A stretch of DNA of 64,000 nt from Raja brachyura (Eukaryota). Every line of letters starts with the position of its first letter. Positions within the stretch are counted from its first letter, which is position 1. Of this stretch, positions 1-62,639 are shown piece by piece. Position numbers and translations under genes: made by a program. The stretch spans positions 19,468,001 to 19,532,000 of the forward strand of contig OY740806.1 in the NCBI GenBank assembly GCA_963514005.1, in the 5' to 3' direction. A model generated the notes under the pieces. It did not search any database and was not told the origin of the DNA. It worked only from the letters and a program-made list of their open reading frames with translations.

Positions 1-1278
1 CTTGAACATTGAGCAAAAAATCAACTGGTGGAGAAGCTCAGCAGGTTATCAGTATCTATGAAGGGAAATAATAGATGATGTTTTGGGTCAGGGCCCTTCT
101 TCAAAACTCAGGAACAGTCCTGACCTAAAATGTCATTTGTCATTTCTCTCCACAACTGTCATCTGAACCACTAAGTTCTGCCAGCAGTTTGCTTTCTGCT
201 CCGAGATTTAAACATTTAGTTGCAGCAATTGACCATGCATCTTTGTGGAAAAGCATAGCTCTTTGTGGAAAAGTATTCCAAACTTCTACCACCCTCTGTG
301 GAAATTTCTACCATCCTCAACTTAATCTTTTGAAGTCCAGCTCCAGTTTAGACTCGCTCCGAAGCCCAACTTCTCCATTGAACTGAAGCAGTTTCTCTCT
401 GTCCATTTTATCAGCTTCAACACTCTGAAAACTTATCAAATTAGCTCATATTCAAGTCAATTCAAGATAATCTACCCTGTTTTCATATGCCAACTCCTGA
501 TATACAAATATCTTCTAATACATTTTAATTAAAATCTTGTCAAGGTCAATATGTTTTTGTAAAGATGCAGTGCTGTCAATACTCCAGGTATAATCAGAAC
601 AGAACATTGTGTAGGTCTAACATAACTTCTCGCCTTTCCTTTCAGGACTCTTGATATAATGTCCAGGATTTCCTGAACCATTTTAGTTATTGTCTGTAAA
701 GGTCCATGATCCATGTCCTCTTTGAATCTCCACTCCTTTTGTTATTTTACAGCGTTTAGAAAACTCTCAGTTCCATCTATGTTAAATCAATTGTGGATGA
801 CCAATGATCAAATCCATGACCACAACTTTGCCCACTCACTCAACCCATGAATTGTCTCCTTGTAATCATTTCTCCTTGTTCAGCTCTTAATGTGTCCTCG
901 GGGGAACCATTCACCTTGTGTTAAACGTTATGTCCATTTTAGGTTCTCATCATTCCGCACCCCCTTACCATAAGGATGAATGGCCTGCCCTCTCCCAGGC
1001 CTGTTTTCCTACTGCCAGGAGTAATCATGAGATGCAAACGAGTGATTGTCGTGACTAAAGCAACACAATTTCAGCCTCTATGTAGGATAGCGCAAGTTCA
1101 TAACGTCACAGTTAAGGTGAAAAATTATAAGGGGGCTGCAGCCACAACCATATTTTCTAACATTATTTTACAGATGTGTGCTGATCAATAGGTACTTCAT
1201 TGATTCCCTTTGAGCCTCAAGCCTATGGAAAAGGTTCTGTTTACAGCACCTCAATTTTGATGACAAGGTGATCCATAA

Positions 1279-1425
1279 GTTTAGTTTAGTTTGCACGGAA
1301 CCCAAAGCGCGCAGCCACAGGGAAAATGCACAACCTCCACACAGGGCAACACCCAAGGTCAGGGTCGAACCTGGGCCTGGGACGCTGTGAAACAGCTGCT
1401 TTACCAGCTGCGCTACTGTGGCAAC
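1279..1425 (-). mobile_element. tRNA-derived SINE (HE1/V-SINE-like), internally deleted
   Basis: gtttagtttagttt tail and reverse-complement tRNA-like head (gtcagggtcgaacctggg...ctgcgctactgtg). Confidence 0.65.
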
Positions 1426-2199
1426 CGGAAGTACACCCAGAGCTGCAGTTATGGTGCAATTTGCAAATGCAAGTTCTTCCCATCCCCACTACTCCCAGAG
1501 TAATATGTTTCAGTTTTCCGTATTTTAATCTAATGTCCTAGATGCCACAGCCGAGGTAAGTGAGTCTGAATGTCAAAAAGCCTGTAATAGGTGCTAGCAA
1601 CCCTGTATGTGGGAGTGCTAACTGCTGAAAGCTTGAACCACTGAGGCACCCTGAGGAATAATACAAATCAAAATTGTTATTTCCAGCATCCTGAAAGAAT
1701 TTGTCAAGGGATTCTTCGAGCCCAATGCAAGTCAAAGCCATGAATTAATGATTACAATGTACAGTAAATGTAACGCTGAATTGCATTTGATTGTACATCT
1801 GACACAGAAATTTTGAAGGGTAATGTCTTCATGAAAAAGTGATTGCAAACCTTTCATTTGTTTCCATACACAAATTGCATTGCAACGTGTTATTTAGATC
1901 TAAGGGTAAAATGATGAAATGATACAGGGATTATCTGGCATTTCTCATTCTTAAAAAGGAAAATACAATCACCAAGGCTTTTTCATAAAGATTGCTGCTC
2001 TCAATCAACAACAACAAAAAAATCTATCTCATCATATTCTGTTGACCTTGGCTTGAGGGAAGCGTAGCTTTGTAATTGAAATTCCTGCCGTGCAAGACAG
2101 GCAGAATATGTAAAACATCTGGGGCTGGAGTCTCCAAAGCAGCTCAACAGCACCTCAGCCAGAGAAAGCAGACAATGCTGGTCACACTCAGGCAGCATC

Positions 2200-2374
2200 T
2201 AGATTAGATTAGATTAGATTTTATTATTTGTCATTTGAACCTCAGAGAGGCTCAAACGAAACTCTGTTTCTACAGCCATACAAACAAAACAATTCCGACA
2301 AAACATACAAACAATTCAATTTTCACAAACATCCATCACAGTGAATCTCCTCCTCACTGTGATGGAAGGCAAAG
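2200..2374 (-). mobile_element. LINE 3' tail with 13-bp hairpin and (AGATT)n tail; same family as 43130-43330 (+)
   Basis: tccatcacagtga-9nt-tcactgtgatgga; agattagattagatt. Confidence 0.55.
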
Positions 2375-3204
2375 TAACTCAGCATTGTCCAGCTGAGTTA
2401 CTCCAGCTTTTTGCGTCTATCTTTGGCTTAATCCAGCATCTGCAGTTCCTTCCTACACCTAAAATGTTAACTATTTCCTTTTCCACATCTGCTATCTGAT
2501 CTACTGAATGGGTACAGCATTAAAAAAAAAAGAGAGATTTTGAGCATCAGCAATGCTTTAGACTTTCACCTCAATTGGATATAGGTTGATATTGAGCTTG
2601 TCCATCCACAATGCTGGATAAGTTGCTGACGGACACAACAAATGCATGTTTGCCTCAAGCAACATGTGATCTCAAGACCACAACTCAGTTGGCAACAGTC
2701 ACTAATGAGCAAGAGGTGCATCATCACAGTGGTCACCAGTGGAACGGTGGGCACGCATGATGTTGTCTCTTTTAGGAGGATCACCTTCCAGTGCAGACAA
2801 CACCACATTAAATTCACGTACCATTGCTTGTTTTCACTTGAGCCCTCCCTTTGTTAACCCCACTGTTGCCTATTCTCCCATTCCAGGAAAAAGGACCATT
2901 TGAAAACAATTCAGACAACGTTTCGTCTTCAGCTGGTCTTTTCAAATACATCCAGCAGAGGAGACATACATTGATTCAGTTGCAATCATAGTTCTAGGCC
3001 ATCAGATATATCCTCACCTTCCTGAATGTGCCCCATTTATCTTCAGATGCAAACTGGACCTGCACTATTAAAATTGATGACTATCCTTCACTTTTTTTTC
3101 AATATATAGGTCTCACTGTTCAGGCCAGGAAGGATAGATACTTAGGAAATCCTTTCCTGCCCAGTTAAGTTTAGTTTAGTTTAGTTTTGCAATTTTGTAT
3201 TCAT

Positions 3205-3440
3205 TTACGATACAATACGATATAACGTTATTTATCCCCGGAGGGAAATTGATCTGTCAACAGACATAAATACACAAAATACATGACACATGAAATTAAA
3301 GTGATGAAAGGAAAGTATTGGGGGATGTTCAAAGATTGGGGAGGTGGATGGTAGTTGGTCTCAGTCTTGGTCTACCCCATGACAGAAGGGGAGGAGTTGA
3401 AAAGTTTGACAGCCACGGGGAAGAAGGATCTCCTGTTCTC
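3205..3440 (-). mobile_element. Rex1/Babar-like 3' end
   Basis: (tacga)n tail, tttatccccggagggaaatt, gagttgaaaagtttgacagccacggggaagaagga. Confidence 0.55.
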
Positions 3441-4747: not shown

Positions 4748-4812
4748 TTTCCTTCCTTCTTTCCTTCCTTCCTTCCTTCCTTCCTTCCTTCCTTCCTTCC
4801 TTCCTTCCTTCC
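4748..4812 (+). repeat. (TTCC)n microsatellite in the polypyrimidine region upstream of microexon 1
   Basis: Direct reading of tandem ttcc units. Confidence 0.95.
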
Positions 4813-4877
4813 CCCTACTTCCTCACCCTTCCTCTCCCCACCCCCTCCAACCACCTCACAATTTTCTCCGATTATAG

Positions 4878-4913
4878 AAGTAAATGAGCCTACGAGCTCG
4901 ACCCAGATTCAAG
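4878..4913 (+). CDS. NTM: IgLON (neurotrimin-like) 36-nt cassette microexon 1, phase 1-1, encoding (E)VNEPTSSTQIQ
   Basis: ttatag|AAGTAAATGAGCCTACGAGCTCGACCCAGATTCAAG|gtcagt. It has a long upstream pyrimidine tract and is frame-preserving. The peptide closely matches the recalled mammalian NTM alternative exon ELNEPTSSTLLQ. Confidence 0.85.
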
Positions 4914-5217
4914 GTCAGTACGGAGCACTGTCATTTCTGTGGCTGCATCTTCTCTGCTGTTTTTCTCTATTGCATGAGGGGATGGGGACCTCTTTCAGCA
5001 CTGCCAGCGGGTTCATGCAGTCTGCAAATAAATATATTAAGCTACCTTGGAAGCAAAGACTCAACAACAACATAATTTGACCGGGATATTTTCTTCAGAA
5101 TATTTTCATTACTACTTGCAACAAGAGGAGTGGAATAATGGTTCTTAACCAATAAAAGTCATACCCCTTTACAATAGCTGTAAATAACACGCAGATTTAA
5201 CAGTTCTACCAACAGTC

Positions 5218-12028: not shown

Positions 12029-12160
12029 TTGAAGAAGGGTCTTGACCCGAAACAACACCCATTCCTTCTTTCCAGAGGTGCTACCTGTCCCGCTGAGTTA
12101 CTCCAGCTTTTTGTGTCTATCTTCAGTTTAAACCAGCATCTGCAGTTCCTTCTTACACAC
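12029..12160 (+). mobile_element. Penelope pLTR-derived mini-element with 14-bp TSD
   Basis: gaagaagggtcttgacccgaaac...ccagcatctgcagttccttcttacac. TSD tcattg(c/g)tgttaat at 12015-12028 and 12161-12174. Confidence 0.85.
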
Positions 12161-16000: not shown

Positions 16001-19000
16001 GCATCAATAAATGTCCAATAAATCACTTCAGTAACTCGATATGCCCAGTATAAATTCAACTGAGTAAAGAAACTCATTGTTCTGTTCCTGTAAAACTTAT
16101 GATGTAGCAACATATGAAGGTTTAACTCCACCTGTGACATTCAGCTGCATTGAGTTGAATGGCAATGAACTTAAAGGGCAAGTTCACTTGCCTGCATAAA
16201 TCATAACATGATGAAATCATAACAATCAAAACATAAAACATTGGATGAATTTCTAGCAGCAGTCAGCATCAGATCCTTACTGTTTGTCATATACATTAAC
16301 ACATTGGATTAGAATGTAGGATAAATTATTGGGATATTTGCAGATGTCACAGAAACTGGTCGTATTGTTGATAGTGAGGAGGGCGGTCTTGGGTTACAGA
16401 ACTATGTTGATCAGCTGAGAGCAGTGACAGATGGAATTCAATTGTTCAATGGAACATTATTGCTAATCCTGATATGTGCAAGATGCGCTTGTTGCTTTTT
16501 GCATTTTGACAGATCCAATATATCCCACAAATGTAGGACGCAGGAGAGTGAAGAGAAACGTCCATAAATCTGTGAAAGTCAGGTCATATGCACGTATGAT
16601 GAGGTAACAATGAAAATCTTGCTTGAAGCAGCATCACAGGCACATAAAAAAACATAAATTATATATAAATCACACATAAATTCTGCAAAATGGTGAAAAG
16701 TAAAAGACTATGCAAACAATATAAATAGTGCAAAAATTACTACAAATACCATTGGTCTTCATGGACATGATGGATCAAAGGGTCTGTTTCAGAGCTTTAT
16801 GTTCCTTTCGTTAGTCGTTTAGTTTCTTCCCTCTTCGAAGACAGCTAAGCATTCTCCTCCACTACCTCTGCTCTCCTGTGACCAGGAAAGTCAGAGCAAT
16901 ACATAGAACAGCTTTCCATTAGCAACTTGGTCAAAAACTAACATGTCAAAATATCACACAATTAATTGATGATGTGAATTCTCAGCATTCTGAATTAAAG
17001 TCAGTGGATTAAAATGATAGACAACAGTTTAATCAAATTCTAATGTTAATGTGGTTTTATTAAATTTACTTATCACAATTTAAAACTCTGTGTTGCAAAC
17101 TATGTTGCAAAATTTGACAGATTGTGTTTAACTTTTTATTAGCAAATTTGTCTTAAAGCTTTCAGAAAGCATCGTACTTTATTGTACTCATGATGTAATC
17201 TTTGAAAGTCCACTTCTGTCATCTAATTACAATGTATATTGATTTAATTTACTCAAAATCCTCTTGAATTGCACCTATTTCATTTATAACTGTGCTTGGA
17301 CACCAAAAGGATATTTAAATAAACAGCCATGTTTATTGGATCTGAGCTAGTCACGAACAACATAATTTCCTTTAGTATTTTCACTAACTCAACCGTAAAC
17401 GTAATATTTGAATTTTTTAAATATTTCAAAGGCTAGTTTTTAAATGAAAAGCAAATTTGCCTTTCACTGATGATTCCTGTTGTCTGAAAAATATTTAGGT
17501 TGCAATGGCAGTGCCGCTCGTTAGTATGTCCACTTTGTTGGAGGCACCCAGTGTTCTTAAAATCTGATTCAAATCTCTGCCTCACCTACAGTAAGTTACG
17601 ATTCTGTATGCTTGTCCCCGAGAAGATAAGAAGAGTCTTGACCCAAAACGTCACCCATTCCTTCTCTCCAGACTTGCTGCATGTCCCGCTGAGTTACTCC
17701 AGCATTTTGTGTCTATCTTATATCTTTCAATACAGTTTTTAAAATTGCATCCTGGCATGGACATTGATTTGTGCCATTTCTGATATTATTCTCCTGTCAC
17801 AAACAACAGCATGGAGATGATTCTTATCAAATTGTTTGGTGCAGATAACACTTGGGTATCTATGATGAGGTGGGAATTTTGTTTTGTGTTCTTGAGTTAC
17901 CACAAATGTAGCTGTTAAAACGTGCCCAAAGTAATGTAATTTATGTGTTTAAATCAAAAATCATCTAATTTGGTTTGGTCTGCAGTTTCTAATGGTGAAA
18001 GAAAACATGCCATCCTTTAATATCACCTTCTTCTAATGGTGTACTGGACACTATTTCCTAAAAAAACTATTCTCTTTAAAATATCTAACATGTTGAGAAA
18101 AGTAACGTGTAAAATCTGACAGATATGAATCAAATTCTGGCCTTGGTAAAGATTTGTATTGCAACTCCAGGAGTCTAGCATCATTACATCTAGAGAGCAG
18201 CAGGTATCTAACATGACCTGTCCCATATTTTAACCATAATAGTAGTTCACACTACAGGAGCCCATGAAAAAATAGAGGTTGCATTGATTTAGGATGGAAT
18301 GGGTGCAGGATGCAAGAAAAAAAGATATGTTTTTTATCTTTGGCAAGGATCCAATTCAATTTTATGTAGAGAGAAATCCCTGTTGTTTAGGTAAGTGTTT
18401 CATTTAACCATTCATCTGTGTTTTTCCATTAAAGAAAATGAAGTTTGTGCAAACTGAGATTAATAGCACCTGCAGAGCAGTTTGTTCAAAGTTAAATCAA
18501 CAATTTTGGTGACAAAAGATTGAAGCTGTCATTGGCGATATTTGGAAGCTAACTACATGCTTTTTGGAGCGGGGAAGTTAATACAAATAAAGAATCAGAC
18601 ATTTTAAGTAACAATTTTTGCAAACACATCTATTGATTCAAACTTTGCTTATTTTTGCATAATTTGCATTGATATTGTTGCGAACATCCATTTTTTATAA
18701 ATGATTTGTCATAGTTAAAAGAACATAGATACTTCATTATAAGCAATCTTTCAATAAACTAATCGCTTACATTTTAAAACAATTTTGAATAAATTTGCAA
18801 CTTTTTCTATTGACAAATCTTCATTCTGCCTGCAGCCTGAAGTAATACATGCTTCTTGAATTGAATATCCAGTTCTTTAAATGTCATTGTATGAGTCCGG
18901 ATTCACTGTGTAGCAGAATACCTCACTGAGCTTTCCGCAGCCTACATGTCTTTTTCAAGCAATAGCAAACAGCTATTTGTTTGATGGAACAGCCCCCACA

Positions 19001-21254: not shown

Positions 21255-21465
21255 GTTAAAGAAGGAACTGCCGATGCTGGAGAATCGAGGGTTACACAAA
21301 AAGCTGGAGAAACTCAGCGGGTGCAGCAGCATCTAAGGAGCGAAGGAGATGGGCGACGTTTCGGGTCGAGACCCTTCTTCAGACTCTCGACCCGAAACGT
21401 CGCCCATCACCTTCGCTCCTTAGATGCTGCTGCACCCGCTGAGTTTCTCCAGCTTTTTGTGTAAC
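21255..21465. mobile_element. Penelope pLTR-derived hairpin mini-element with 15-bp TSD
   Basis: 83-bp inverted arms at 21289-21371 and 21385-21467 (1 mismatch). TSD cccatatgcatttgt at 21240-21254 and 21466-21480. Confidence 0.88.
21355..21384 (-). ncRNA. Minimal hammerhead ribozyme motif (Penelope-type)
   Basis: Minus strand reads GU-CUGAAGA-A-GGGUC-UC-GACCC-GAAACGUC: core CUGANGA, stem II, GAAA, palindromic ACGU in place of stem III, and a GUC triplet. Confidence 0.65.
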
Positions 21466-22369
21466 CCCATATGCATTTGTCCCCATTGTTGCCACAGTGC
21501 AATTTGTGTCCTTGTGATTATCACTTGCTGTTAAATTATCTTGACAGTCAGACAACCTCTATTTTGTGGCATGAGGTAACTCTTGTTACCTTTTCCCTTC
21601 TTTGCCTATTACTAAAACAGAGAGACTTCTTTCACTCTGCGTTTTAAGGGTAGCACAAGATGGTAAAACATAAGGCTGAAAGTGCCATTTAGTCTGTCAA
21701 TCCGCAACGCACCTTGTTAAATTGCTATCATTCTGCTGGTACGGTAAGAATGTATTTTATACAGTAACATTGTAAATTGTGATTCCAACAAGAATTTGCA
21801 TAATCCTTCAATTTTGACATCAAAATGTAGTCACTGAAAGGCTTCTGAGGGTGCATTTAAATTTTCAGAGGAACAGGATGCACTCAGTCATCAAGAGCCC
21901 AGATTGGCCGCAGGTACACAAAACATTTCCCCCGTGCCCTTCATTCTTTCAGCGGCTGCACCATAAATAATTATACTTTTCCTTTTAGAACATTACAATA
22001 TAATTTCACGAATGTCCCTGAAAAAAACGACCTAATTGTTTGGACTCTGAGTTAATATCGAAGTCCCATTCATTGAACAATGTCTGCTGAAGTTTAGTAT
22101 TTAATGCCATTGGCTGTCTGTGTCTATTATTGGATTGGAGATGATTTATCAGCAATTAAATAAGAAGCATATAAACAAAAGTAAGAGGAGGCTTTCTGGG
22201 ATCATCTGAACATGATAAAAATTGTGAGTGCCCTATAATTAATAACAGATATTTCAAATTGAATTTGTTAACATTTCATTTTGAAATGTCCCCGAGTGTA
22301 TAGAAACAATGAAAACAACTTTTGACAGCAGCAAGATGTCAGAAACCATCAGAGTAGTACTGTGTCAAA

Positions 22370-24349: not shown

Positions 24350-24453
24350 GTCCCGGAACAGTGCTTGACGGGAATAACCGCGCTCCCGCAGGAATGACTC
24401 CGTCACTATGGCTACTGGTGATACTCTTCGTCCACTTCCTCTTCAAATTTTGA
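24350..24453 (+). CDS. NTM: Terminal coding exon of an IgLON family gene (NTM/OPCML-like): GPI-anchor signal (G)PGTVLDGNNRAPAGMTPSLWLLVILFVHFLFKF*
   Basis: Branch-like CACTAAG starts at 24316 and the acceptor is tccacag|GT. The GPG start and hydrophobic tail ending H-x-x-x-KF* match recalled NTM (GPGAVSEV...LHLLLKF) and OPCML (GPGAVIDG...AHFFIKF). NTM is preferred because of the microexons. Confidence 0.85.
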
Positions 24454-34602: not shown

Positions 34603-36719
34603 GGTATGGGGAAATGTAGCAATAACAAAGTCATCGTCTTGAAGACATTATATGCAGATTGCACTGTATTGGATAGGTAGACAGAAGTAACAATTGGCAA
34701 GGATTATTAAGACGTTTTTAGTTTTTTCTATTGCTTATGACTTTTCCTGAACTCCATGATGTTTTATATCCAATTTTCTTCAAAAAAAGCATATCTAATC
34801 ATAAATAACGTCGCCAATCTCCTCCCTGTGTGTCATGGCTGATGCCATCAAAGAATGAATTGGTCGCTCACTTAAGTCTGGCTCAGGTAATATTTATATT
34901 CAAGTTCCACTGGGAAGACCTGAACACAGAAATTGAGAGTGATTGCAGTATAGTACCAGGAGTGCTTTGTGTAAGAAAGATCAGATGCTGGTTTACACCA
35001 AAGATAAACATAAAATGCAGGAGTAACTCAGTGGGATAAGCAGCATCTCTGGAGAGAAGGAATGGGTGACGTTTTGAGTGACCCTGTCACCCATTCCTTC
35101 TATCCAGAGATGCTGCTTGCTCCAAAAGAGCTTTGTTGTATTACAGGTATCTTTCAGATGAAATCTTACAACATGACCCCTGTCTCACTATTATTTTGAA
35201 GAAGAGCCATTTTATCCTTAACCAAAAGCATGGAAGGTGGAATATTAACTGGTCTTTATCTCAATGGTGTAATTCAGAGGAATTCCAACAATGTTTGTTT
35301 GCATTGAGTTACACGTTTGCTTGTGCCCATGTGGATTTACTACAGTGCTCCAGTTTCCTCCCTTCTCCCAAAGTCGTATAGGTCGTTAATTGCCCCTAAT
35401 ATGTTGGGGAGTGGTAGAATCTAGTAGAAGTAAAATGGGATTAATGTAGGATTAATATCAATGCACAGTTGATGGTCAGCGCGGACTTGTTGGGACACAG
35501 GTCCTGCTTCCATGCTCTATCATTCCACGACTCTACAACAATGACCATGTAAAATAAAATACAACTCTCTCAGCCAGGTAGTTCTTGTGGTTTTCATTCT
35601 CAGTCATCACCCTGAAGGTGGGGGAATTGATCTTTAAAATGTAGAGATATGCATCTGATGTATTTTTGTAGTCATTGACTCATTGTATTTCATCGTCACC
35701 TCTGTTTTGAATATCATTTGAGCAAATCGATTGTTGCATTACCCTGTTCTGCTTGTGGAAACACAGGCATGAGCTAGGAAATGGAGTTTCAGCACATTAT
35801 ATCACTGGAATATTAAGTCTGCCCAAAGTCTTGCGGATTAACTGATAATCAAAGCTCTGCAGTTGTTGGAACTAAAATTAAAGATGCCTTGCACTGTAAT
35901 ACTCCGCATCTGTGCAGCGAAAACATCATCAAGGGTCATTGACCTGAAATATTTAACTTTTTTTTCTGTCCAGAGTTGCTGTTTGACCTGCTGGGTATTT
36001 CCAGCACAATCTTTCTTTGTGCAGAAAGGAACTGCAGATGCTGGTATATACCGTCCGTCTTTGGTCCTCTTGTGGGTGTGGGCAAGTTAGCCCGATCGAC
36101 CTGTTTCCACGCTGTATGACTCTTGCCTGACTCTTGTCTGCCCTCTTTTGAAGCAGTTCCCCACTACTAATACACAAAGTATGATTTTACTTCATTTCTG
36201 CAATAGATTCGGTTGCTTGCAGACATGTACTTGCCTTTGATGCAGTTCTCCAGATGTGACAAGGAAGTAACATTAAAAACAGAAGTGCAGATGGGATTAC
36301 TTCATTCAAATTTGGTCTCTGTTGTTTATTTGCTGCTCGTGCTGAATAGAGGCTTTAGTTGGTGTTTGTTTTAACAAAGAATTAAATCAAAAGTGTCCAA
36401 ATGGTGTCAGAACAAATTCAAATCAATGTATGTTGACTATGACTGTAGGAGATAGTTTTGAGTCATCTGCACTTGGCTTGGTGCTGCCTTAGATTATTTG
36501 CGAGCAAACTTCAAGTGCAAGACAGAGCTCAAAGAAAAGGACCTGCAATCTCACCGATTCAATAGTGCTAATTATTTAATTTCACATTATCCACACCAGA
36601 AGTAATTCCACCACAACTAATTAACACATATGCAAATAAATACTTTGAGAGAAATTATACTTTGATTTTGGAATTAGTTTTACATATTTTGATTTTTGCT
36701 TAATCAATTGTGACAATAA

Positions 36720-37302: not shown

Positions 37303-38519
37303 CTGTTGAGGTAATTTAGTGGGTTAGGCAATATCTCAGGAGAAAATGGCCACGTGACATTTTGGGGTTGTGACCTGAAACGTCACCTATCCATGTTTTC
37401 CACAGATTCAGCCCGACCCGCTGAGTTACTCCAGCACTTTGTGTCTTTTTTAGGAAACACTCAGGTCCTGCTTGAGGCATGAAAGCCACTGCCCCTCATC
37501 TTTTTGAGCATATTTTTGGTAAATTTTCTTTTTTTTGTTATGAAGGACGTTGATTCTAAAAACACCACAGATTTCACAGCAAAACGGTGAATGCACACGT
37601 TAGCTCTTTTGTTGCACATTGTACATAAAGAAACTCCAGCCCTGAGGTTTGCAAGCGTTGCATACATTTTGATAACAAACTGCATGTCAAAGACATTGTG
37701 CCCACTAAGTCATGAAGAGTAATATTTCCTAAAGACATCCGTTCACTGTCACAGAGAAGCATTCACAACAAAGTGCTCTCAGACACGTTAGTAGATAGCT
37801 TCAATTGAAGAACCATCTGTAAATTCCCCAATTTTAATCTTCGAAAACAACAGAGGAATTCATCTATGTGCTAATACACATCACCTCTCCAGCAATAATG
37901 AGAATAGAGTAGATTAATTTGTGTTCAGTTGCACTGTTGACTGGAAATGTAATTGTATGTTTCATGAAGGAGCGAGAGAAGTTTATTAAGTACTACTTAT
38001 TGCAATTTCCTGTTTAGAGCATGCCATCCCATTTTCGAAGATAATACAAATGGAACTATAGGTTTTGTAGGCTGTTTTGATGGTGAAATTAGCAGAAAAA
38101 GAGTTAGACAAGACTAATGAAATTACATGGAAATTTAAAAAAGTTTCATTTGTGATTTTTTTTTTTTTTAAGTATTACTTTAGCTGTGTTCCAACTATTA
38201 TACAGCAAAATTATTGGTACCTTGGGTGAAATGAGAGGGTGAAAATAACATTGAGCTCATGAAACTAAGTAGGGGAGGTTTTTTCTAGTAGTTTATCAGA
38301 TGCAATGCAGGCAACACCTTCTCTCTGTCCACCTGATGCATTTAGTTGTTCTCATTGAAAGTTGGGAATATTAAAAAGCATTGAACTCCTGGCAATGTTC
38401 ATGGTCACTTGGGCAGCTCGACAACTGAGGGGCAAAGCATTCACCAAGGCATCTAAAATTGATGGGCCTTTTGGCACAAGCAATAAGAGGAAGGAGAAAG
38501 AAATACAATGTACAGAGAT

Positions 38520-42455: not shown

Positions 42456-43499
42456 TGGTGATGCCATGGTAAGTGGGTGACTCCTTCTGATTTGTTCTCA
42501 CTTCTAATCAGCTTTGCAGTGCAGTCAGTCCAGTTGCACAAATGTGCAATAACATTGTAAAACTAACTACGGCAAAATGTTAACAATAGGCTGAGTTCAC
42601 CTCCATTTCTGAGCCGCTGTACCTAAGCATTAAAGATCCTATATCCGCTCTAGGTTCTTTGCTAAGCATGGGGACGAGATTCTTTATACACTTTATTACT
42701 AGCCTGGAATCTTTGGTGCTTGGGGAAAAACTCACACTTTGTTTCTGGTCATTAATGTAACCCAGCACTGAAGTCACAAGAGATTATCAATCTCAATGAT
42801 ATACTTGCAATAACATTAAAGAGAAGGGTCCCAACCTGAAACATCATTTGTCCATTCCCTCCACAGATGCTGCCTGACCTGTTGAGTTACTCCAGCACTT
42901 TGTGTTTTACTGGTCAGTTTAATTGGTCCATGAATTCAATAATTCATGGAAATAACCAGCAGCTAGGATACTCGATAAAGTAAACCATTTTAATCCATTG
43001 TAATAATTTGCTGGCAATTTAAAATGATATCAATAAAAATATACACACTTTTAACAGATCTAACGTTCTGTGGGGGAGTTGGTTGCACAAGTTGAACTGA
43101 ACAATACCATGTAAATGTTTTGCTAAATCATAGATGCTGTTACAACAAGGGAAGGACTAGGAACTTTATTTTCGCCTTCCATCACAGTGAGGAATGTGTA
43201 GAAGTCACTGTGATGGATGTTTATGTTAAAATGTGTTTTTTTGAGTCTGTTGCTTTTTAAATTGTATGCCTGACCTGGCCAGTGAATTTCACTATACCAA
43301 TTGGTGTATGTGACAATAAATGAACTTATGAACTTATTATAAAAATTAGATTGAAATGTGTTCTTATTCTGGATTATTAGGAGTATTGAAAAATACTTTG
43401 ACTTAAGATGATGCTGACAATGTTTCCCTTGCTCCACACCTATCAGTGTCGTCTACCCACTACCCACTACCAGCAAGGATCCCACCCTCATCTACTACA

Positions 43500-43845: not shown

Positions 43846-45154
43846 GATCTGCTGTCTGCCTGCAATGGTACCTTGAGCCTCATGCATGAGGTAAAAATAG
43901 TAGCATAGAGTTGACCCAAGCTCCTAACACAGCACCATTTCAATGTAGGCACAAATTGCTGGAACAACTCAGCGGGGCAGGCAGCATCTCTGGATAGAAG
44001 GAATGGGTGGCGTTTACGGTCAAGACCCTTCTTCAGACCCATTTTAATGTACCTTTTTATCCACTGGAGAATTTCTAGCCGTTTTAAACTGTTTGATTTT
44101 GAAATGTGGTAAGCAATGGGCTGCAATGTTTTTCCACAGTATAACAGGAATAGATTTGCATTGGCCAGACATATAGAAGCAGCAGGTTCTTTAGATTTAA
44201 AAACCTTGCAAGTTCATGATAATTTGATATCTTTCATTATCATTTTTCTTTCCCTGCCCAAACGTCATTAAATAAATTCTAATAAACAATTTATTTTTGA
44301 TTGGACTTCAATGCAGACTTGAGATTGTCACTCAGAGCTACGAGGCTACATTAACCAATATAGTTTTTGATACCATTGATGCAGACACGCTTTTGTTTAC
44401 TTACCCGAGTGACCCTTCTTCATTTGATAAGTAAAGTCAACAGGTTCCTGTTCATTTCTTGATACGTATGGACTTTCCATGACCAGCGTCTGTCTAGTTA
44501 TAACAACTATGAAGCAGAATAAAATGTTCAGAATTTGACACTTCATTGGCAATTACATGTAGTGTTTATTACCCATAAAGGGTAAGAGCAATTATAATGA
44601 ACCCAAGTTATGTTGTTCATGTCTATCTGACACTTGGCTGTGATCTCAGTCATAAAAAAGCAAACACGATAAGTATATTAATTGCCGGGGTAGGTCGAGC
44701 TTTGTAATATTGCCACTGAAAAGCTATAGGCCAAGCAATTGTTTAAATTACTTATAGCCAGTCAAATGTGAACGTCTCCTAAATCTGTTTTTAGATGCCT
44801 CAGTCACGGTTACAAAACAGTCTGGAATTATTTAATTGCACTATGCAATTTTGAATTTAGCTAAAAGCCAATGTTAGAACATGGAACATGAAACAGTACA
44901 GCATTAGAACAGGCCCTCGTAAACCTCCTCTGGACCCTGTCCAATGCCAGCACAGCCTTTCTCAGATATGGGTCCAAAACTGTTCACATTATTCCAAATG
45001 CAGTCTGACCAGTGCCATATAAAGCTACAGCATTGCATCCCTGATTTGTATTCTAGCCCTTATTAAATAAATGCCAGCCAGAATCACCATGCAGTCCTTC
45101 TTAACATTCCATGTAGATGATCTTTGAGTTCTGTCCCATACTGCCTTGAGAGAG

Positions 45155-45350
45155 GACACAAAGTGCTGGAGGCAACATCTCCGGAGAAAATGGATAAATG
45201 ACGTTTTGCGTTGGGACCCTTCTTCAGACGAACTTGACCCGAAATGTCACCTATCCTTGTTCTCCCGAGATGCTGCCTGAGCTGCTGAATTACTCCAGCA
45301 CTTCATGTTCTTTGGGTATTAACCAGCACCTGCAGTTCTTTGGTTCTACA
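45155..45350. mobile_element. Penelope pLTR-derived hairpin mini-element (other copies at about 15-215, 2375-2460, 17628-17720, 34970-35120, 35920-36050, 37330-37450, 42820-42910, 43945-44040, 56720-56820, 57105-57310, 62435-62572)
   Basis: Shared gacccgaaacgtcacc...gatgctgcctg...ctgagttactccagca motif, in one or both orientations. Confidence 0.75.
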
Positions 45351-47540
45351 TTATGCCCTGAGAGAGGTTGTGTAATGTAAATGTCGGTTACAAGTATCCA
45401 TCCTCTGTGTAACTGCCGGAAATTGTTTAAAGCAAATTAGGAGACTTTCCTGTCTAACTGGCTATATTTATATATATATAAACTTGGTATATTTAATATG
45501 AAGCATGTGAAGAATTAGTAGGATCTTTCTTTCCATACAAAATATAATGAAAAGGCAAATATTTTAGAATTAAGTTGAAACATTAAAGCGTTGAGGTCAT
45601 GTGCAATACATTTCCTGAATGGGGCGGTTGAAATAACATCCTCAAAAGAATATAATTGTCCAAGAAAACGATTCGATTCTTATGCAATAATATTATTCAT
45701 GATGCGATAGTATGCTTGAACATTTCAGGTGCAATCTCTTATTAAAATTATTTGCAAAGCTTTTGAAATATTTTCAAATGTGCCGTTATATTTCCATGTT
45801 AGCACTTCCATGGCTTCTGTATAAGTTTATTAAGTCATTTACCACCAGCGATAGAGTAAATAGTACAGTGGTATTAGTCATTTAATAAAGGAAATTAAGG
45901 ACCTCTTTCATAAATGGTATATAGGTGGAAAGAAGGCCAATAACAAACGCTGAGAAAATGCACGATGTGAGACTGAACCCAGAGTCAACATTATTGTAAA
46001 GCCCAACTCCCATTATTGCTGAAGCCACTATGCAATTAAATAATGTGTTTGGAAAGTACCTGAAGTAAATTAAAAAGGAATATGATGAACATCCCATAGT
46101 GGGATCTGTCAGCATTAGATTTGAACAGAACAAATATTCACTTCAACCAAACCGTGAGCTGAATTTTCAGCGATGGCTATAGACCAACCAAATGTTTTAA
46201 GGCAAAATGTTATTCCAATTCCTCAACACATGGCAACAAACATTTCCATGACACTATTGAATAACATCTGCCATAGAACACAAATCAGGCAACCAGGATG
46301 AATTTAACTTTTCATACAGTTTCATTCTTTTAACTCACAGTGATCAATCTGCTTTGCTTAGGACTAAACCTGCCTCAGTTACCGGTTGAGGAATTGTTGG
46401 AGTCAGATTTGTGAATCTCTTGATAGTGAGTCTGCTTTGGTATGCTGTTGCTTTTACTCATATTTATTTTTGATTTTATTTTCCCTAAAAGAGCTACACA
46501 TTGATAATTGGAAGGGTCGAAGATTCCCAAGATAATTACAAGGATGTTGGTAGGTCAGATTAGCATAGATGGGGCATCTTGGTTGGCATGGGTAAGTTGG
46601 GCCGAAGGGCCTTTGCCCGTGGTTTATGACTACCACTGAGGAAGTCGTACGGATCACATGGTTGGAGCTGTGAGCTTATTAGTTTCTGAGTCCTCATGGA
46701 GTTTAGATGAACTTTAGATGTTCTTAAAAGAATTGGCCAGAGCAATAGTTGATGTGTTGACATTAGTCTTCTAAAATTGCATATATCCGAGTGTTTCTGT
46801 TTGATTTCAAAATAGCAAATATAACTCCGTCACTCACAAATCAAGGAAGGCAGAAAAGAGGACGCTACAGGCCTTTTAGCTTAACAACTGTCACCGGGAA
46901 AAGGTTAGAAGCAATTATTATTGTTGTTTTAGAAGAGCATTCAGAAAAAATCAAGGCAAAAGGATAAAGTCAACATGGATTTGCGAAGGGTAATCATATT
47001 GGCCACAATACTGGATTTCTTTGAAGAAGTAACTTGAGCTGTGCGTGAAATGAATGTGTTGTTGGTAACCAATCCATTTCTGAAACATGACAGACATGTT
47101 GTTTTGATCAAGGTAAGTTAATTTATTGGCAGTTAAGTTTCTTTATAATTATTGTCCTTGCTGCATTTAATGATATTCTTATCCAGTATGCATTCACCCT
47201 GGTTTATATGTGCCTTAGAATTGTTGCCCTTTAATAAATTGAAACCTACAATTAGTCTGTAAAGTTACTATAACTCTTGTCTAGAAACTTAATTCTTCTG
47301 CATTTCCACTTTATTTAATTGAACATTGTTCCTAATCCACACAGTACATAAAATATCGAGTTTCGGTATCGTCCATTAAAATGAGTGGATGGAAACCTAA
47401 TTAGTTTCCAGAGCTTTAAAATAGATATTTCTGGGAGTAGATTTATGGATAAGAATTATGTTGGGAATTAGTTTATAGATAAGGATGATGTTATGATGTC
47501 TTAAGTGAATTTGGCTTGCTTTATAATTAATCAAAAGCCA

Positions 47541-50657: not shown

Positions 50658-50854
50658 AGAAGCAAAGAGCTGCAGATGCTGGTTCATACCAAAGATAGAC
50701 GCAAAGTGCTGGACTAACCCAACAGAAACAGATTGGGTGACATTTCGGGTCGGACCCTTTCTCTGAGTCTGAAGAAAGGTCTTGACCTGAAATGTCACCG
50801 TCCTTTTATACTGCCTCATCTGCTGCGTTACTCCAGCACGTTGTGTCAATCCAC
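50658..50854. mobile_element. Penelope pLTR-derived hairpin mini-element
   Basis: Inverted pLTR halves flanked by a duplicated ttttctatgt (50648-50657 and 50855-50864). Confidence 0.75.
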
Positions 50855-50908: not shown

Positions 50909-51936
50909 AAACAGACTATTGACCAACATACATACAAACCTACTGACTCCCATGGCTATCTTCACTACTCTTCTTCCCACCCTGCTTCCTGTGAAGACTC
51001 CATCCCCTGTTCCCAATTCCTCCGTCTACGCTGCATCTGCGCCCAGCATGAGGTGTTCTATACCAGGGCATCGGAGATGTCCTCATTCATTTGGAAATGG
51101 GGGTTCCCCTCTTCCATTATAGATGAGGCTCTCACGAGGGTCACATTGATATCCCGCAGGTTGGCTCTTGCCCAGACTCCCCACATTCGTAACAAGGACA
51201 GAGTCCCCCATATCCTCACCTTTCACCCCGTCAGCAGTCGCATACAGCTTATAATTCTCCAACACATTCGCCACCTCCAACCGGATCCCACTACTGGCCA
51301 CATCTTCCCATCTCCACCCCTTTCTGCTTTCCGCAGAGACCGTTCCCTCCGAAACTCCCTGGTCAACTAGTCCCTTCCCACCCAAACCACCCCCTCCCCA
51401 GGTACTTTCCCCTGCAAACCTCAGGAGATGCAACACATGCCCCTTTACCTCCCACCTCGACTCCATCCAAGAACCCAAACAGTCTTTCCAGGGGAGGCAG
51501 AGGTTCACTTTGCGCAGGCTCAGCGATCGTTTCGCTGAACACCTCCGCTCAGTCCGCCTTCACCTACCTGATCTTCCGGTGGCTCAGCACTTCAGCTCCC
51601 CCTCCCATTTCCTATTGGACCTTTCTGTCCTGGGCCTCCTCCATTATCAGAGTGAGGCCCAGCACCTATTGGAGGAACAGCAACTCATATTCCGCTTGGG
51701 TAGATTATATCCCAGCAGTATAAACATGGACTTCTCTAATTCAGATAGCCCTTTCTCTCACCATCCCCTCCTCTTCCAAGTTCCAACACTTCTTACTGTC
51801 TCCAACTACATTCTATCTTTGTACAGCCCCCTCCCCTGACAACAACCTGAGGAAGGGCTTTGACCCGAAACGTCACCCATTCCTTCTCTCCAGAGGCGCT
51901 GCCTGACCCGCTGAGTTACTCCAGTATTTCGTGTCA
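50909..51936 (+). mobile_element. Penelope-like retroelement, 5'-truncated: RT thumb remnant, GIY-YIG endonuclease C-terminal part, 3' pseudo-LTR
   Basis: KPTDSHGYL..SSSHP..C..SIP.SQFLRLR.IC; GFPSSIIDEAL; RRLSDRFAEHLRSV...PVAQHFSSPSH...LEEQQLIFRLG. TSD atcttcagag(a/g)catt at 50894-50908 and 51937-51951. Confidence 0.9.
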
Positions 51937-54899: not shown

Positions 54900-55710
54900 A
54901 TCATCCTTGCATCCAGCTTATCAAACCATAGAGGAATCTTATAACGATCAAATATATACTTAGTCTACTCACCCTCTCTCCGTCTGGCAAAACTGTCATC
55001 TCTTGAACTAGTTTAGTGAATCTTTGCTGCACTCCCTCATCCTTTTTAGGTATGAAAGCCAAACAAGTACACCATACTCCAGGTGTGGCCTCACCAAGAC
55101 CTATAAACAGTATGTTTAAGAAGGAACTGCAGATGCTGGAAAATCGAAGGTACACAAAAATACTGGAGAAACTCAGCGGGTGCAGCAGCATCTATGGAGC
55201 GTAGGAAATAGGCAACGTTTCGGGCCGAAACCCTTCTTCAAACACCCTATAAACAGTACGTGTGAACTAATTTAAAAATTGACTCCAGCTGTTTAGGGCG
55301 ATTCCATCCTAAATCCATCTGTGTTTCCCACAGTCAAGAATTATTGGTTTTCGTTCCAGCGTAGCTAATGAAGGATTTCCTCATTACTGGGCTTAGAACA
55401 TTCAACAACACGGAACAGAATCAGGTCCTTCAGCTCACGATGTCTGTGCTGAACACAACACCAAGATAAATTCATCTCATCTGCCTGCATGTGATCCATA
55501 TCCCTCCATTCCTTGCGTATCCATGTGCCTATATAAAAATCTATTAAATGTCACTATCATATCTGGCTCTACCACCATCCCCGGCAGTCCATCCCAGTGA
55601 AAAAAAAACTTGCCTTGTGCATCTCCTTTAAACTTTGTCCTTGTGCCCATTTCACCCTCATGTCCCCTCCTCTTTGACATTTCCTCCCTGAGGAAAAAGG
55701 GTCTGAGTGT
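54900..55710 (-). mobile_element. Decayed CR1-like fragments (about 54900-55105 and 55395-55710) interrupted by a Penelope-derived mini-element
   Basis: Minus-strand EGVQQRFTKLV and KFKGDAQGKFFF..LPGMVVEPD. Confidence 0.65.
55113..55245 (-). mobile_element. Penelope pLTR-derived mini-element with 13-bp TSD
   Basis: aagaaggaactgcagatgctgg...cgtttcgggccgaaacccttcttca. TSD cctataaacagta on both sides. Confidence 0.85.
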
Positions 55711-56047: not shown

Positions 56048-56255
56048 TGTGTAAGAAGGATGCTGGTTGAAACCAAAGATAGACTCAAAAAGCTGGAGAA
56101 ACTCAGTGGGTCAGACAAAATCTCTGGAGAAAGGGAATAGGTGACGTTCTTCAGATTGAAGAATGGTCTCGAACCGATGCGTCACCTATTCCTTTTCTCC
56201 AGAGAAGCTGTCTGACCCACTGAGTTAGTACAGCTTTTTGTGTCTATCTTCAAAG
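56048..56255. mobile_element. Penelope pLTR-derived hairpin mini-element
   Basis: Arms aagatagac..aaaagctg...aataggtgacg / cgtcacctattcc...agctttttgtgtctatctt, flanked by catgatcatg on both sides. Confidence 0.8.
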
Positions 56256-57314
56256 CATGATCATGCCGAGAATGAAAATGTAGGTTCATTTCACATCAGC
56301 AATTCTTCCTTTTTACTTGAATATGCTGTGCAGAAGCTGTTTGAAGCTTAATGCTCAGAAGATGCCTCTGTCAGAAGTAGTGGTTGCATACTACTCTGAT
56401 TGTCATCACTATGGGTCACAATATTTACTCTCTGACCTCCGATAGCATGACATTTCTCCCTCTCACAACTTGCTGCACAGAGTGGCTCATGAAGAGGAAA
56501 CTGGGCCAACTGTCCCTTGAAATTATGGCTCTAATCAGGATTCCCTGGAACTACTACGTCGGTTCATGATAAAGACAAAGAAAGGAATGCTTGAATTATG
56601 TGGCTGCATTGTTTCCTTTTACTTAGAACAGGAAGGAGTGCATGGCACTGTTTCAAAGACCAGGGGAGTTTTATCCTGTGCTGTGGCCACAATTTGTCTA
56701 GCAATTCTGTGGGATTAGAGTGTAAAAGATACAAAGTACTGGAGTAACTCAGCAGGACAGGCAGCTTCTCCAGAGAACAGGGAAAGGTCATGTTTCGGGA
56801 CAGGAATCTTCTTCAGAATCAGGATGAGAGTAAAAGGGTGCCTGGTGTTCAACATGAACTTGGTGAGCTTGCTGGCCTGTTTACGTGCTGTATGACTCCC
56901 AGGCTCTAAGATAACTTGAGCACTTGGAACAAGTGATTGCCTGGTCATTATCACATTGCTGTTTGCGAGATTTTGACAAGTACAAATTGCCGACTGCGCA
57001 TCCTGGATTTGAACACTTCAAATACGCTCATGAACAATAATGTAGTTTGAAACTTTTTGAATTCATGATGGGATGAATTTAGTTGTAAATTTTAATCAAA
57101 ATCTAAATACAGATGTTGAAATTCTGAAAATAAAATATAAAATAATGGAAACATTCAAGTGGTCAGGCAGCATCTGTGGAAAGGGAAACAAAGTTTGTGC
57201 TTCAGGTTCAAGACTCTTTGACAAAACAGTTCTGTCACAGGATTTCTGACAGGAAGTGTTAACCGGTTTGCTTTCTCCAGATACTGGCCGATCTGCTGAG
57301 TGCTCCTGGCATGT

Positions 57315-60190: not shown

Positions 60191-61039
60191 TCCATATAAT
60201 TAAAAGTCTATTCTTGACCACTTTCTGTATTGCGCTGTATATTGATTTTAGAAGAAATGATACCACGTACGGCTGTGATTTTTGGTCATCTTACTTAGAG
60301 TCCCCCTCCGCTCATCAGGTGCTGAGGATGTTTCCCATCAATGAAAAATAAAGGAGTTATTAGTGTTTAAAAAATGTTGAGATTCTCTCTCCTGTCAATC
60401 ACGTCATGGAGGCCACGCCCCTCCGATGGGAGGGGGGAAGGACTATTAAACCCGGAAGTATGGGCATGGCTCAGTCTCTGCAAGATGGGGGAGGGAGAGG
60501 TCAGGACTCTCTGTCTGAGCTGTGAATCAAATGAACACGCTGAATGTCTACAGAACTGTGTGTGGTTTTATGTGGTTTTTATGTAGTTTTATCTGTGTTT
60601 TGTGGTGTTTTATGGGGTTTTATGGTGGTTTCGCCCTGCTTGAACTGGTATGGAACTGCATTTGAATTTGGTGGCCTTGCACCCTGCTTGAAATAGTAGG
60701 AAGCTGCATTTGAATTTGGTGGCCTTGCAACCTGCTTGAAATGGTAAGAAACTGCACTTGAATTTGGTGGCCTTGCACCCTGCTTGAAATTAATTTCAAG
60801 GAATAGCCGTGAGTCAACTGCCAGCCCACCAGCCGTGAGTGAGCTGCCAGCACACCAGGCTTGAGTGAATGAGCTGCCAGCCCAAGAATCCATTTGGCCC
60901 ACAATGTTCATACTAGCACTCCAGATGCTCCCCCACCCACTGGCCACCAATATTGTAATTCATGGAGAGGTGGAATATTGCGTTTGGGGACCAGCCCCCC
61001 CGTGTGAACATGGGACCCAACAGGTCCTACTTTGTCTAG
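60191..61039 (+). mobile_element. Non-autonomous Helitron
   Basis: 5' A|TCCATATAATTAAAAG; 3' hairpin tgggacc-caaca-ggtccta (61011-61029) then CTAG|T. Inserted between A and T with no TSD. Confidence 0.75.
60634..60790 (+). repeat. 48-bp tandem repeat, about 3.3 copies, inside the Helitron (a ~26-bp repeat x3 follows at about 60805-60885)
   Basis: Unit ccctgcttgaa.tggta.gaa.ctgcatttgaatttggtggccttgca. Confidence 0.9.
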
Positions 61040-61569
61040 TTCATTTCTAGATTTGATCCAATTCTATGCTTGATTTCAACCTGAACTTATCACTGTATTG
61101 ACTCACTTCAGCAAAAGTTAAAATAGATGAATTATTGTGGTGAATAACTGCAAAATGCATGTTGAGCAAAAGCCTCAGCAGCAAGTGGTATTTTGTGTAT
61201 TACCTTCAGGAGCTAGAATCTGCTTGCACACAGATTAGCCACTTTCCTTAGATTCTTTCAGAAAGTTACGGCTTATACATGGTGCACACTGACCGAAAGC
61301 AAACATGTTGCACTCAAATAGAGAAGGAGGTATAGGTGATTATATTAAGCATTGCAAGTTTTCATTCAACATCAGGGTTGCATAGTGGCGCAACTGGTAG
61401 AATTGCCGCCACTCAGTGCCAGAGACCTGGGTTGATCCTGACCTTGGCTGCTGTCTCTGCTGAGTTATGAACTTATGAAGATAAAACACCCCTGGCCATT
61501 TCCAGGCTGGGCTGCCAATGCAGCCGGCACCCCTTCCCTGCCCGCTTCCAGGATGAATACGAAAGCTCT

Positions 61570-62261
61570 GGGTGATTGTAGAGCAGAGGGATCAAGGAAT
61601 GCAGGTACATAGTTCTTTAAAAGTGGCATCACAGGTAGATAGGGTGGTCAAAAAGACTTTTGGCACATTGGCCTTTATCTGTCGTAGTGTTGAAAGGAGA
61701 AGTTGGGAGGTCATGTTGCAGTTATATAAGTCGTTGGCGAGGTCACATTTAGATATTGTGTTGAGTTTAGGGTATGCACCATGTTATTGGAAAGTTATTG
61801 TCATGCTGGAAAGGGTGCAGAGATGATTTACCAGGATGTTGCCAGGATTCGAGGGTCTGAGCAGGCTCGGAATCTATTCCTTGGAGTGAAGGAGGATGAG
61901 TGGTGATCTCATAGAGGTGCACAAAGTCATGAGAGGAATAGATTGGGTGAATGCACAGAGTCTCTTGCCCAGAGCAGGGGAATCGAGAACCAGAGGACAT
62001 AGGTTTAAAGTGAGGAGGGAAAGATTTAATAGTCTTTTTTTCACACGGATGTGGTCGATGTGTGGAACAAGCTGCCGGAGAGGTGGTTGAGACAGGTAAT
62101 ATCGCAACGTTTAAGAAACATTTAGACAGATACATGAATAGGACGTGTTTATAGGGATATGGGCCAAATGCAGGCAGGTGGGACTAGCTTAAGTGGGATA
62201 TGTTGGTCAGTGTGGGCCATTTGGGCTGAAGGGCCTATTTCCACACTGTATGACTCTATGA
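61570..62261 (+). mobile_element. CR1-like LINE 3' portion (subfamily B)
   Basis: EQRDQGMQVHSSLKVASQVDRVVKK...QLYKSLARSHL; GDLIEVHKVMRG...ESRTRGHRFKV; tail tgtatgactctatgac. Confidence 0.92.
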
Positions 62262-62639
62262 CAGGTCAGACCTACTGGCACCACCTCTGGCCCACACAGC
62301 TTTCTTGGCCACTTCCAGGCTGTGCCTGCCACTGCCACCGACTTTCACCTGCACTCTGGCCGCCCGCAGACTACAACCAAGGACTCCGCTGATACACTAC
62401 TTACCTCACCTGGATTGCAAGCCAAGTTACAGACTGAGCGTCTGAAGAAGAATCCTGACCCAAAACATCACCTGTCCACGGTCTCCCGGTTTGCTGTCTG
62501 ACCGGTGAGTTAATCCAGCACTTTCTGCCTTTTTGTGTATTAACCAGCATCTACAGTTCTTTGTTTTTACTACATGCACAAGGATACTCCCTGAATTGGT
62601 CACCCCTTACTTGGTTATAGTGGACAATCAGCATTAACG

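Follow-up and report, generated by a model that had tools for sequence, protein, structure and literature searches.

Short hammerhead-bearing repeats of the skate Raja brachyura as probable minimal insertion products of a Penelope-like retrotransposon

The short hammerhead-bearing repeats found in the window, a 64,000-nt stretch of Raja brachyura DNA (OY740806.1, positions 19,468,001 to 19,532,000), correspond, as judged from their sequence, to the opening ~95 or ~128 nt of a Penelope-like retrotransposon of the Neptune type, a stretch that comprises a minimal hammerhead and a "tail". They are probably dead, minimal products of the target-primed reverse transcription of this element and not a separately propagating family. 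As a family, they are nothing unusual among Penelope-like elements.

A profile was built from 10 copies of the window and searched against its whole length (E ≤ 10). It matched 26 arms, and no match was obtained in the controls (one reversed and four dinucleotide-shuffled sequences). The arms correspond to 18 insertions, seven of which are head-to-head pairs (Table 1), in good agreement with the original prediction of about 18 copies, many of them inverted pairs. The five TSDs named in that prediction, at 12029, 21256, 50658, 55116-55245 and 56048, were all present, and further ones were detected at 43948-44038 and 45154-45351. The copy at 50909-51936, which had been described as an RT/GIY-YIG copy ending in the unit, does end in it, but only the C-terminal part of its RT region is present, with no YIDD core, and the GIY-YIG motif is deleted.

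Table 1. Repeat insertions and host-gene context in the 64,000-nt window
Feature	Position	Strand	Remarks
Head-to-head pair, old	15..192		minus arm extends 12 nt beyond window start
Tail-only fragment, long end, without core	2386..2451	+	profile match
Solo long-tail unit	12029..12160	+	14-nt TSD (1 mismatch); C3 and stem III palindrome mutated; last IgLON intron
Solo short-tail unit	17625..17725	+	first box gone at junction; G12 lost through CpG decay
Head-to-head pair, young	21256..21466		15-nt TSD; arms 99% complementary; minus arm complete, long-tail, intact core, C3 at 21382; plus arm short-tail, begins at +11
Last exon, IgLON-like host gene (GPI-signal-like end)	24350..24453	+	context, outside repeat
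Head-to-head pair	34973..35123		5'-truncated in both arms
Old unit, then inverted tail remnant	35931..36007	+	profile match
Head-to-head pair, old	37309..37456		profile match
Solo short-tail unit, old	42822..42911	+	profile match
Solo short-tail unit, start -2	43948..44038	-	13-nt TSD (1 mismatch)
Head-to-head pair: complete short arm, truncated long arm	45154..45351		14-nt TSD; ends approximate
Head-to-head pair	50658..50854		10-nt TSD
5'-truncated Penelope copy	50909..51936	+	15-nt TSD (1 mismatch); C3 at 51847; order: C-terminal RT region, Cys-rich linker, endonuclease, 3' UTR, hammerhead, short tail
Solo long-tail unit	55116..55245	-	16-nt TSD (1 mismatch)
Head-to-head pair: truncated long arm, complete short arm	56048..56255		10-nt TSD
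Solo short-tail unit, old	56727..56816	-	profile match
Unit, very old	57109..57218	-	profile match
Solo long-tail unit, old	62442..62562	+	profile match

The Penelope origin proposed for the unit was supported by full-length RT-EN copies elsewhere in the genome, in which it sits at both ends (unit, 1203-codon ORF, 3' UTR, unit). The 1203-aa frame is intact in copies L061 and L062. Pfam analysis of the full-length ORF gave RVT_1 (E = 5e-4) and GIY-YIG (E = 2e-3), both under the Pfam cut-offs; nothing meaningful was obtained by Pfam with the Penelope-like fragments and the 118 ORFs of the window, and no solved structure resembling the ORF of the element was found. The RT-EN linker of L061 reads CNRKRCYTC (CX4CxxC) and is of the CX2-5CxxC form used as a clade criterion (PMC8557442). 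Copies of the element display pLTRs, partial tandems, an inverted 5'-truncated copy and a one-sided tail; a pLTR, such an inverted copy and a one-sided tail of 30-40 bp are described for Neptune/Nematis elements (PMC8557442, PMC3846280). Judged by ORF layout, linker and pLTR architecture, it is an EN+ element of the Neptune/Nematis type. The 5' start of L061 lies at -2, and contigs of the sequencing runs X1-X4 cover its 3' part, where the depth over the unit far exceeds that over the body.

Exact cores were counted by pattern searches of the genome and amounted to at least 35,700 (13,067 plus at least 22,635 matches). Extrapolation from a sample of 621 arms in 1.4 Mb, in which the interior density rests on 12 stretches, gave about 1 million arms genome-wide. 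The very large copy number that had been anticipated was supported.

With the C of CUGA taken as position 0, the 3' ends of the units were located at two sites, S (about +90 to +100) and L (about +121 to +130). These two peaks match the two initiation sites and the tail of PAc, an element of Anolis carolinensis (PMC11167929). The 5' ends peaked 2-3 nt before the core (-2/-3): among 115 young non-inverted arms, 46 started at -5..0 and 19 at -2, the starts being spread from -9 to +9 and not confined to one base. A G stood at -3 in 8 of the 13 rows that break at -2 (counted by eye), which is suggestive only; cap-templated G is a known phenomenon. A spliced 5' end at CAG/T just before the core, hinted at by the D. 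virilis intron, was rejected, since the upstream letters are heterogeneous and the TSDs are mostly found within ~11 nt of the core, so that a common first exon is lacking. TSDs were mostly of 13-14 nt. They were detected in 45/211 solos (controls 9/632), 36/110 pairs (5/326) and 12/40 extended copies (3/117), so that the TSD-bearing share of the elements is only 21-33%.

Head-to-head pairs showed a marked arm rule. One L and one S arm were combined in 89 of 110 pairs, against an expected 55 (p = 2e-11). Among the strict L+S pairs (n = 75), 32 had a truncated L arm with a complete S arm and 10 the reverse (p = 0.0009), while both arms were complete in 16, all these class counts depending on the thresholds chosen for local alignments. 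Because each arm of the L-truncated/S-complete pairs holds sequence absent from its partner, neither arm is a fold-back copy of the other. The arm sequences suggest that a pair may consist of two separately primed cDNAs, and the proposal that the units are truncation and inversion products was borne out. Some asymmetric pairs could have arisen by post-insertion deletion in hairpin centres.

The published view is different: fold-back (snap-back) of one cDNA at the small core palindromes, or self-priming on antisense RNA (PMC3846280), would produce the inversion, and endonuclease-mediated resolution (PMC8557442) the tail. Palindromes do occur at -5..+4 and in stem II, with several pair junctions located exactly there, and the 16 strict pairs with both arms complete, together with the 10 in which the L arm is complete, are compatible with this pathway. 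It is nevertheless considered unlikely here in view of the mutually exclusive arm sequence in 32 of the 75 strict pairs, and the short arm of pairs ends at the S site, as in solos.

The alternative of a discrete non-autonomous RNA family, retrozyme- or SINE-like, with short units transcribed, perhaps cleaved and circularised, and then re-inserted by the Penelope RT, is more doubtful still. Both ends of the unit are sharp and it has TSDs of its own, but its starts are not permuted to the cleavage site (+28/+29), where only 2 of the 115 young non-inverted arms began and no peak was seen. Random 5' breakpoints had been named as the sign of simple truncation; the ends proved non-random, yet they do not define a discrete family, as copies linked to the element body stopped at the 5' hammerhead edge equally often (58/100, against 53/100 of all copies; rows scored by eye), a comparison that fits a transcript start and a pause alike. 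Since the place and the rate of the stop are the same in body-linked copies, ~42% of which read through, a separate short RNA is unnecessary. Stubs far outnumber ORF-start-linked copies (at least 22,635 exact matches against 241), but they lack RNA downstream of the start sites, and PAc needs ~55-60 nt beyond (PMC11167929). PLE-derived retrozymes are known from vertebrates, one chondrichthyan among them (bioRxiv 10.64898/2026.07.22.740005), and an internal promoter is reported for Penelope in D. virilis (PMC2377424). No head-to-tail tandem arrays were detected in the 1.4 Mb sample, outside which rare arrays are possible, and same-strand neighbours within 60 nt numbered 14 among its 621 arms.

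The junctions also argue against a separate family. Among 138 pairs, 32 locus-pairs had a common junction, of which 29 shared at least one flank and the other three represent the minimal palindrome joint; in this test of pairs, no private junction lineage with independent flanks was found. A 355-copy junction was considered as a self-propagating pair family and rejected, all 30 loci examined being placed within larger repeats, which end in terminal inverted repeats and not in tails (8 loci extended). Where an unusual junction did recur, it was always as a passenger carried by a DNA transposon. The retrozyme-like family of the original prediction was therefore not supported by cleavage-site starts, tandem arrays or junction lineages.

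The core consists of CUGANGA, an extra base at 9/10.1, G10.1-C11.1, GAAA, a palindrome replacing helix III and an NUH (GUC) site, so that the catalytic boxes, palindrome and cleavage site expected of a minimal hammerhead are all present. Helix I has 2 bp (U-A or U-G, and G-C), and the pair types of helix II showed only one-sided and CpG changes. An intact core was found in 38 of the 621 sampled arms and, in the window, in one of the 24 arms scored (21382, minus strand); folding predicts that this core is trapped in a ~95-bp hairpin formed by the two arms of the pair. An Rfam scan of the window returned no hammerhead family, only chance miRNA hairpins, and MFE folds of the unit did not yield the hammerhead fold. 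The broken cores can be explained by CpG decay and junction truncation: core CpG positions were kept at 66-75%, whereas the core positions next to them were kept at 92-96%, with no difference between the strands. Single minimal hammerheads are reported not to cleave in vitro (PMC4209133), and the hammerhead of a stub, whether single or paired, is predicted not to be active.

The units at 12029, 17625 and 21256 are intronic, as confirmed by exon positions. The host gene, which we take to be IgLON-like from its motifs, lies on the + strand; two Ig exons precede the window, at distances of 53.8 kb and 6.4 kb, and the last exon starts at 24350; no Ig domain was detected by Pfam in the 118 window ORFs. 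The one intact core in the IgLON intron of the window is antisense, as had been noted, and in Xenopus introns are depleted of retrozymes (bioRxiv 10.64898/2026.07.22.740005, the consulted parts of which do not treat strand), but a purge of intact sense-strand cores as pre-mRNA cleavers is highly improbable given 264 sense and 263 antisense arms (95% CI 46-54%) and 18 and 17 intact cores (CI 34-69%) in 1.2 Mb of intron of three long CUB-exon genes, intact cores in 14/106 core-spanning non-paired arms on each strand, 14 arms on each strand with none intact in one intron of this IgLON gene further upstream, and a helix I of just 2 bp in a hammerhead type that did not cleave in vitro as a single motif. 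The strand-equal CpG loss fits the other explanation offered originally, CpG decay.

For the preferred reading, dead products of target-primed reverse transcription, the following course may be proposed. The RT-endonuclease would nick both target strands, and the RT would prime internally at S and/or L, as does the Poseidon-clade PAc, for which the two-strand result was obtained in vitro (PMC11167929). About 55% of the cDNAs would stop at the 5' hammerhead edge, which, judging from the DNA, is most likely the RNA start, somewhat favoured over structural arrest. One cDNA would give a solo unit; two, primed on different strands and at different start sites, would be joined head to head as a pair; read-through RNA would give ordinary 5'-truncated copies. 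The hammerhead would be copied uncleaved. We give an even chance to the more specific idea that a dimeric enzyme primes one cDNA per target strand at two fixed sites ~30 nt apart near the RNA 5' end, with run-off at a transcript start in helix I leaving "strong-stop"-like stubs. If true, this twin-site priming would account for two long-standing puzzles, the inverted pLTR and the tail on one side only, and ~4% of the genome would have been generated by it as ~1 million hammerhead-bearing stubs.

The units provide a very large natural archive of Penelope-like insertion products. Their fixed 3' starts, fixed 5' stop and long/short arm rule lead to a testable prediction, namely that each pair contains two primed cDNAs. 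In genomes of this kind, counting hammerheads would largely amount to counting dead retrotransposon stubs, some of them multiplied by DNA transposons.

The core resembles the minimal hammerheads of PLE pLTRs (PMC4209133) in CUGANGA, the extra base before G10.1-C11.1, GAAA, the palindromic ACGU in place of helix III and GUC, and in the thousands of single dispersed motifs. Its 2-bp helix I is as in D. virilis, whereas the Schistosoma type has 4-5 bp, and the exact cores outnumber the ~9,000 motifs of Xenopus. Non-LTR retrozymes (PMC7229834; bioRxiv 10.64898/2026.07.22.740005) are likewise non-coding and PLE-related, with a type I hammerhead and long TSDs, but they form head-to-tail tandems of 150-450 bp, cleavage-to-cleavage monomers and circular RNAs; the skate units occur scattered, either solo or head-to-head, and show no permutation. 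PAc (PMC11167929) shares the hammerhead at the element start, the two internal RT start sites delimiting the tail, the cutting and extension of both target strands and the uncleaved RNA template. It belongs to a different clade, its ORF begins within the hammerhead, whereas the first ATG of the skate element lies ~160 nt downstream, and the consulted parts of that paper do not treat head-to-head stubs. With Neptune/Nematis elements (PMC8557442, PMC3846280) the skate element shares a single RT-EN ORF with the CX2-5CxxC linker, partial tandems, a head-to-head inverted terminal copy, a ~30-nt tail on one arm only and TSDs of 9-15 nt. In contrast to these, most skate insertions are the terminal unit alone, solo or paired, and where self-priming and endonuclease resolution account there for inversion and tail, two primed cDNAs are suggested here.

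The repeated hammerhead units are stubs from the termini of a Penelope element, probably of Neptune type; they are real, very abundant and of a kind already known. A protein search of the skate's own genome with the RT fragment of the window gave 48,029 candidates, with open frames of up to 1203 codons. One fetched copy, L061, displayed the layout unit, ORF, 3' UTR, unit, so that the unit opens the element and recurs at its end. The ORF gave RVT_1 and GIY-YIG matches, both weak, and this arrangement upholds the Penelope origin originally predicted. The ORF also contains a CX4CxxC linker, a type that marks Neptune/Nematis elements according to PMC8557442.

The unit comprises CUGAAGA, an extra A, a helix II of 4-5 bp, GAAA, the palindrome ACGU and a GUC site. 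In boxes, extra A, helix II, palindrome and GUC site it is like the minimal hammerheads of PMC4209133. Helix I is only 2 bp. Comparison of the arms (single unit copies) revealed no compensatory pairs in helix II, changes being one-sided or CpG only. Pairing of the long-tail end, as modelled, would mask the ribozyme and place the long (L) start site at the stem base.

Exact 30-nt cores numbered 13,067 for a first variant and at least 22,635 for a second, the latter count being low since two flank letters were fixed in the search pattern. Reversed controls gave none. In 1.404 Mb of fetched sequence 621 arms were found (0 in the reversed control), 252 of them in 126 head-to-head pairs, and boxes, helix II and palindrome were all retained in only 38. 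Twelve scattered interior stretches held 42 arms in 120 kb (range 0-9). Extrapolating from this non-random sample puts the total at 0.95-1.2 million arms, which would occupy some 4% of the 2.70 Gb genome. With at least 35,700 exact cores, the very large copy number anticipated was borne out. The unit was far deeper than the element body in two other organisms, so the excess of stubs is common to relatives.

A profile HMM made from ten window copies detected 26 arms across the window; five controls yielded no hit. They group into 18 insertions, seven of them pairs. All five target-site duplications (TSDs) cited in the original prediction were found, with two more, and the Penelope copy does terminate in a hammerhead unit.

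Features located in the window and in fetched stretches of the Raja brachyura genome (G000)
Feature	Location	Observation
Penelope copy	window 50909-51936	C-terminal region only of RT; GIY-YIG motif lost; enclosed by 15-nt TSD
Only window arm with intact core	window 21382, minus strand	predicted to be buried with its partner arm in a long hairpin
Host gene, plus strand	last exon at window 24350	Ig exons precede the window by 53.8 and 6.4 kb; presumably IgLON-like, judging by motifs
Long inverted-repeat elements	window 33722-34114; 53200-53386/54420-54845	no relation to the unit; among them 165-nt arms (82%) and a T2-like element interrupted by a CR1-type LINE
Presumed CR1-type LINE 3' fragments and tRNA-derived SINE-like repeats, many	window 7222-7923, 12284-13039, 22358-22915, 53387-54430, 61557-62257	
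Long-tail end	L061:2036-2175	predicted to pair with first catalytic box (z=-2.0)
3' part of L061	L061:5300-6140	element body far less deeply covered than the unit by contigs of two other organisms (runs X1-X4)
Pair in 3' UTR of own parent element	L062:5999-6215 and 1792-2008	after insertion, copied along inside tandem array
Near full-length copy	L065 ~1840-5930	starts ~+26, adjoining predicted cleavage site; possible microhomology with target; single case
Junctions repeating the unit's first ~10 bases just upstream	e.g. G000:C2:6949056, C2:151498718, C6:95878906	
Carriers of 355-copy junction	L261-L263 (G000:C1)	about 2.97 kb
Carriers of 355-copy junction	L264-L268	about 2.07-2.3 kb

Positions were counted from the C of CUGA (0). 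Among 115 young non-inverted arms, selected by tail, 46 started at -5 to 0 (19 at -2), 22 at +1 to +9, 17 at +10 to +50 and 8 at -13 to -46; 22 extended beyond -52. By eye, 53 of the first 100 exact cores listed broke at -8 to 0, 46 ran into the 3' UTR (3 breaking in the next 50 nt) and 1 was ambiguous. The unit was joined to pre-ORF sequence in only 241 copies; among the 100 of these listed, 58 broke at -9 to 0 and 42 read through, also by eye. Since body-linked copies break at the same place, the stop belongs to copying of the element RNA and not to a separate short RNA. Full-length L061 begins at -2, and YCAGTCT at the stop site agrees with an initiator consensus. An internal promoter is present in D. 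virilis Penelope (PMC2377424). RNA starting at the 5' edge of the hammerhead would let the RT run off near -2 and yield stubs. A pause in copying, instead of a transcript start, fits as well, the spread of 5' starts and the 42% read-through suiting it equally. The repeated first bases at several junctions look as if the cDNA end had re-annealed to the internal GUCU after run-off at -2.

The retrozyme-like family originally proposed is not supported. The units lack the defining features given in PMC7229834 and bioRxiv 10.64898/2026.07.22.740005: only 2 of the 115 arms (within the +10 to +50 class) start at the cleavage site, no tandem arrays were seen among 621 arms (14 close same-strand neighbours), and unusual junctions that recur have common flanks. 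Among 138 pairs, 32 locus-pairs had a common junction, 29 with a common flank and the other three being the minimal palindrome joint. The genome contains 355 occurrences of one unusual junction; a self-propagating pair family was rejected here, as 30/30 fetched loci lay inside larger shared repeats. The eight loci extended proved to be DNA-transposon carriers of 2.1-3.0 kb that have terminal inverted repeats. They represent two non-autonomous DNA-transposon-like elements whose common internal segment is crowded with 8-11 hammerhead-tail arms. The hAT-like element has an 8-bp TSD in L261, and the Kolobok/T2-like one has TTAA-type ends.

Selection against sense-strand intronic cores, also suggested, is not supported either. 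Three long genes, CSMD to judge from exon spacing, were found by CUB exons on contigs C31 (+), C5 (-) and C4 (-), each contributing 400 kb of intron sequence. Arms were 264 sense and 263 antisense (95% interval 46-54%), solos (single arms) 129:132 and intact cores 18:17, with an interval (34-69%) compatible with mild bias. Unpaired arms spanning the core were intact in 14/106 on either strand. The proposed alternative, CpG decay, fits: conservation was 66-75% at the CpG positions of the core but 92-96% at neighbouring positions, with no difference between strands. Junction loss and CpG decay account for the three broken sense copies in the window.

TSDs, mostly 13-14 nt, flanked 45/211 solos, 36/110 pairs and 12/40 extended copies, against 9/632, 5/326 and 3/117 shuffled controls, respectively. 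Arm 3' ends formed two peaks, short (S) at about +90 to +100 and L at about +121 to +130. An L arm was joined to an S arm in 89 of 110 pairs with both tails (55 expected, p=2e-11). Among 75 strict L+S pairs, 32 combined a truncated L with a complete S, 10 were the reverse, 16 had both complete and 17 were other. In the commonest class L holds 3' sequence absent from S and S holds 5' sequence absent from L, so neither arm was copied from the other; random loss of a hairpin centre would not favour one side. Given the two-strand activity and predicted dimer of PAc (below), the simplest reading is two separately primed cDNAs, one per target strand, which would be joined head to head. This twin-site priming and the run-off model are the part deserving experiment.

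Literature searches retrieved no work on twin priming in Penelope-like element insertion, judged by titles and opening abstract lines, and listed no paper on this hammerhead-stub family in skates or sharks; one chondrichthyan was surveyed in the 2026 preprint (bioRxiv 10.64898/2026.07.22.740005). An inverted copy with a one-sided tail has been published already; the layout matches, and the published explanation is self-priming with endonuclease resolution (PMC8557442, PMC3846280). According to PMC11167929, the Poseidon-clade element PAc of Anolis carolinensis, a predicted dimer, cuts and extends both target strands in vitro, and its tail is delimited by two internal RT start sites, which the S and L peaks resemble.
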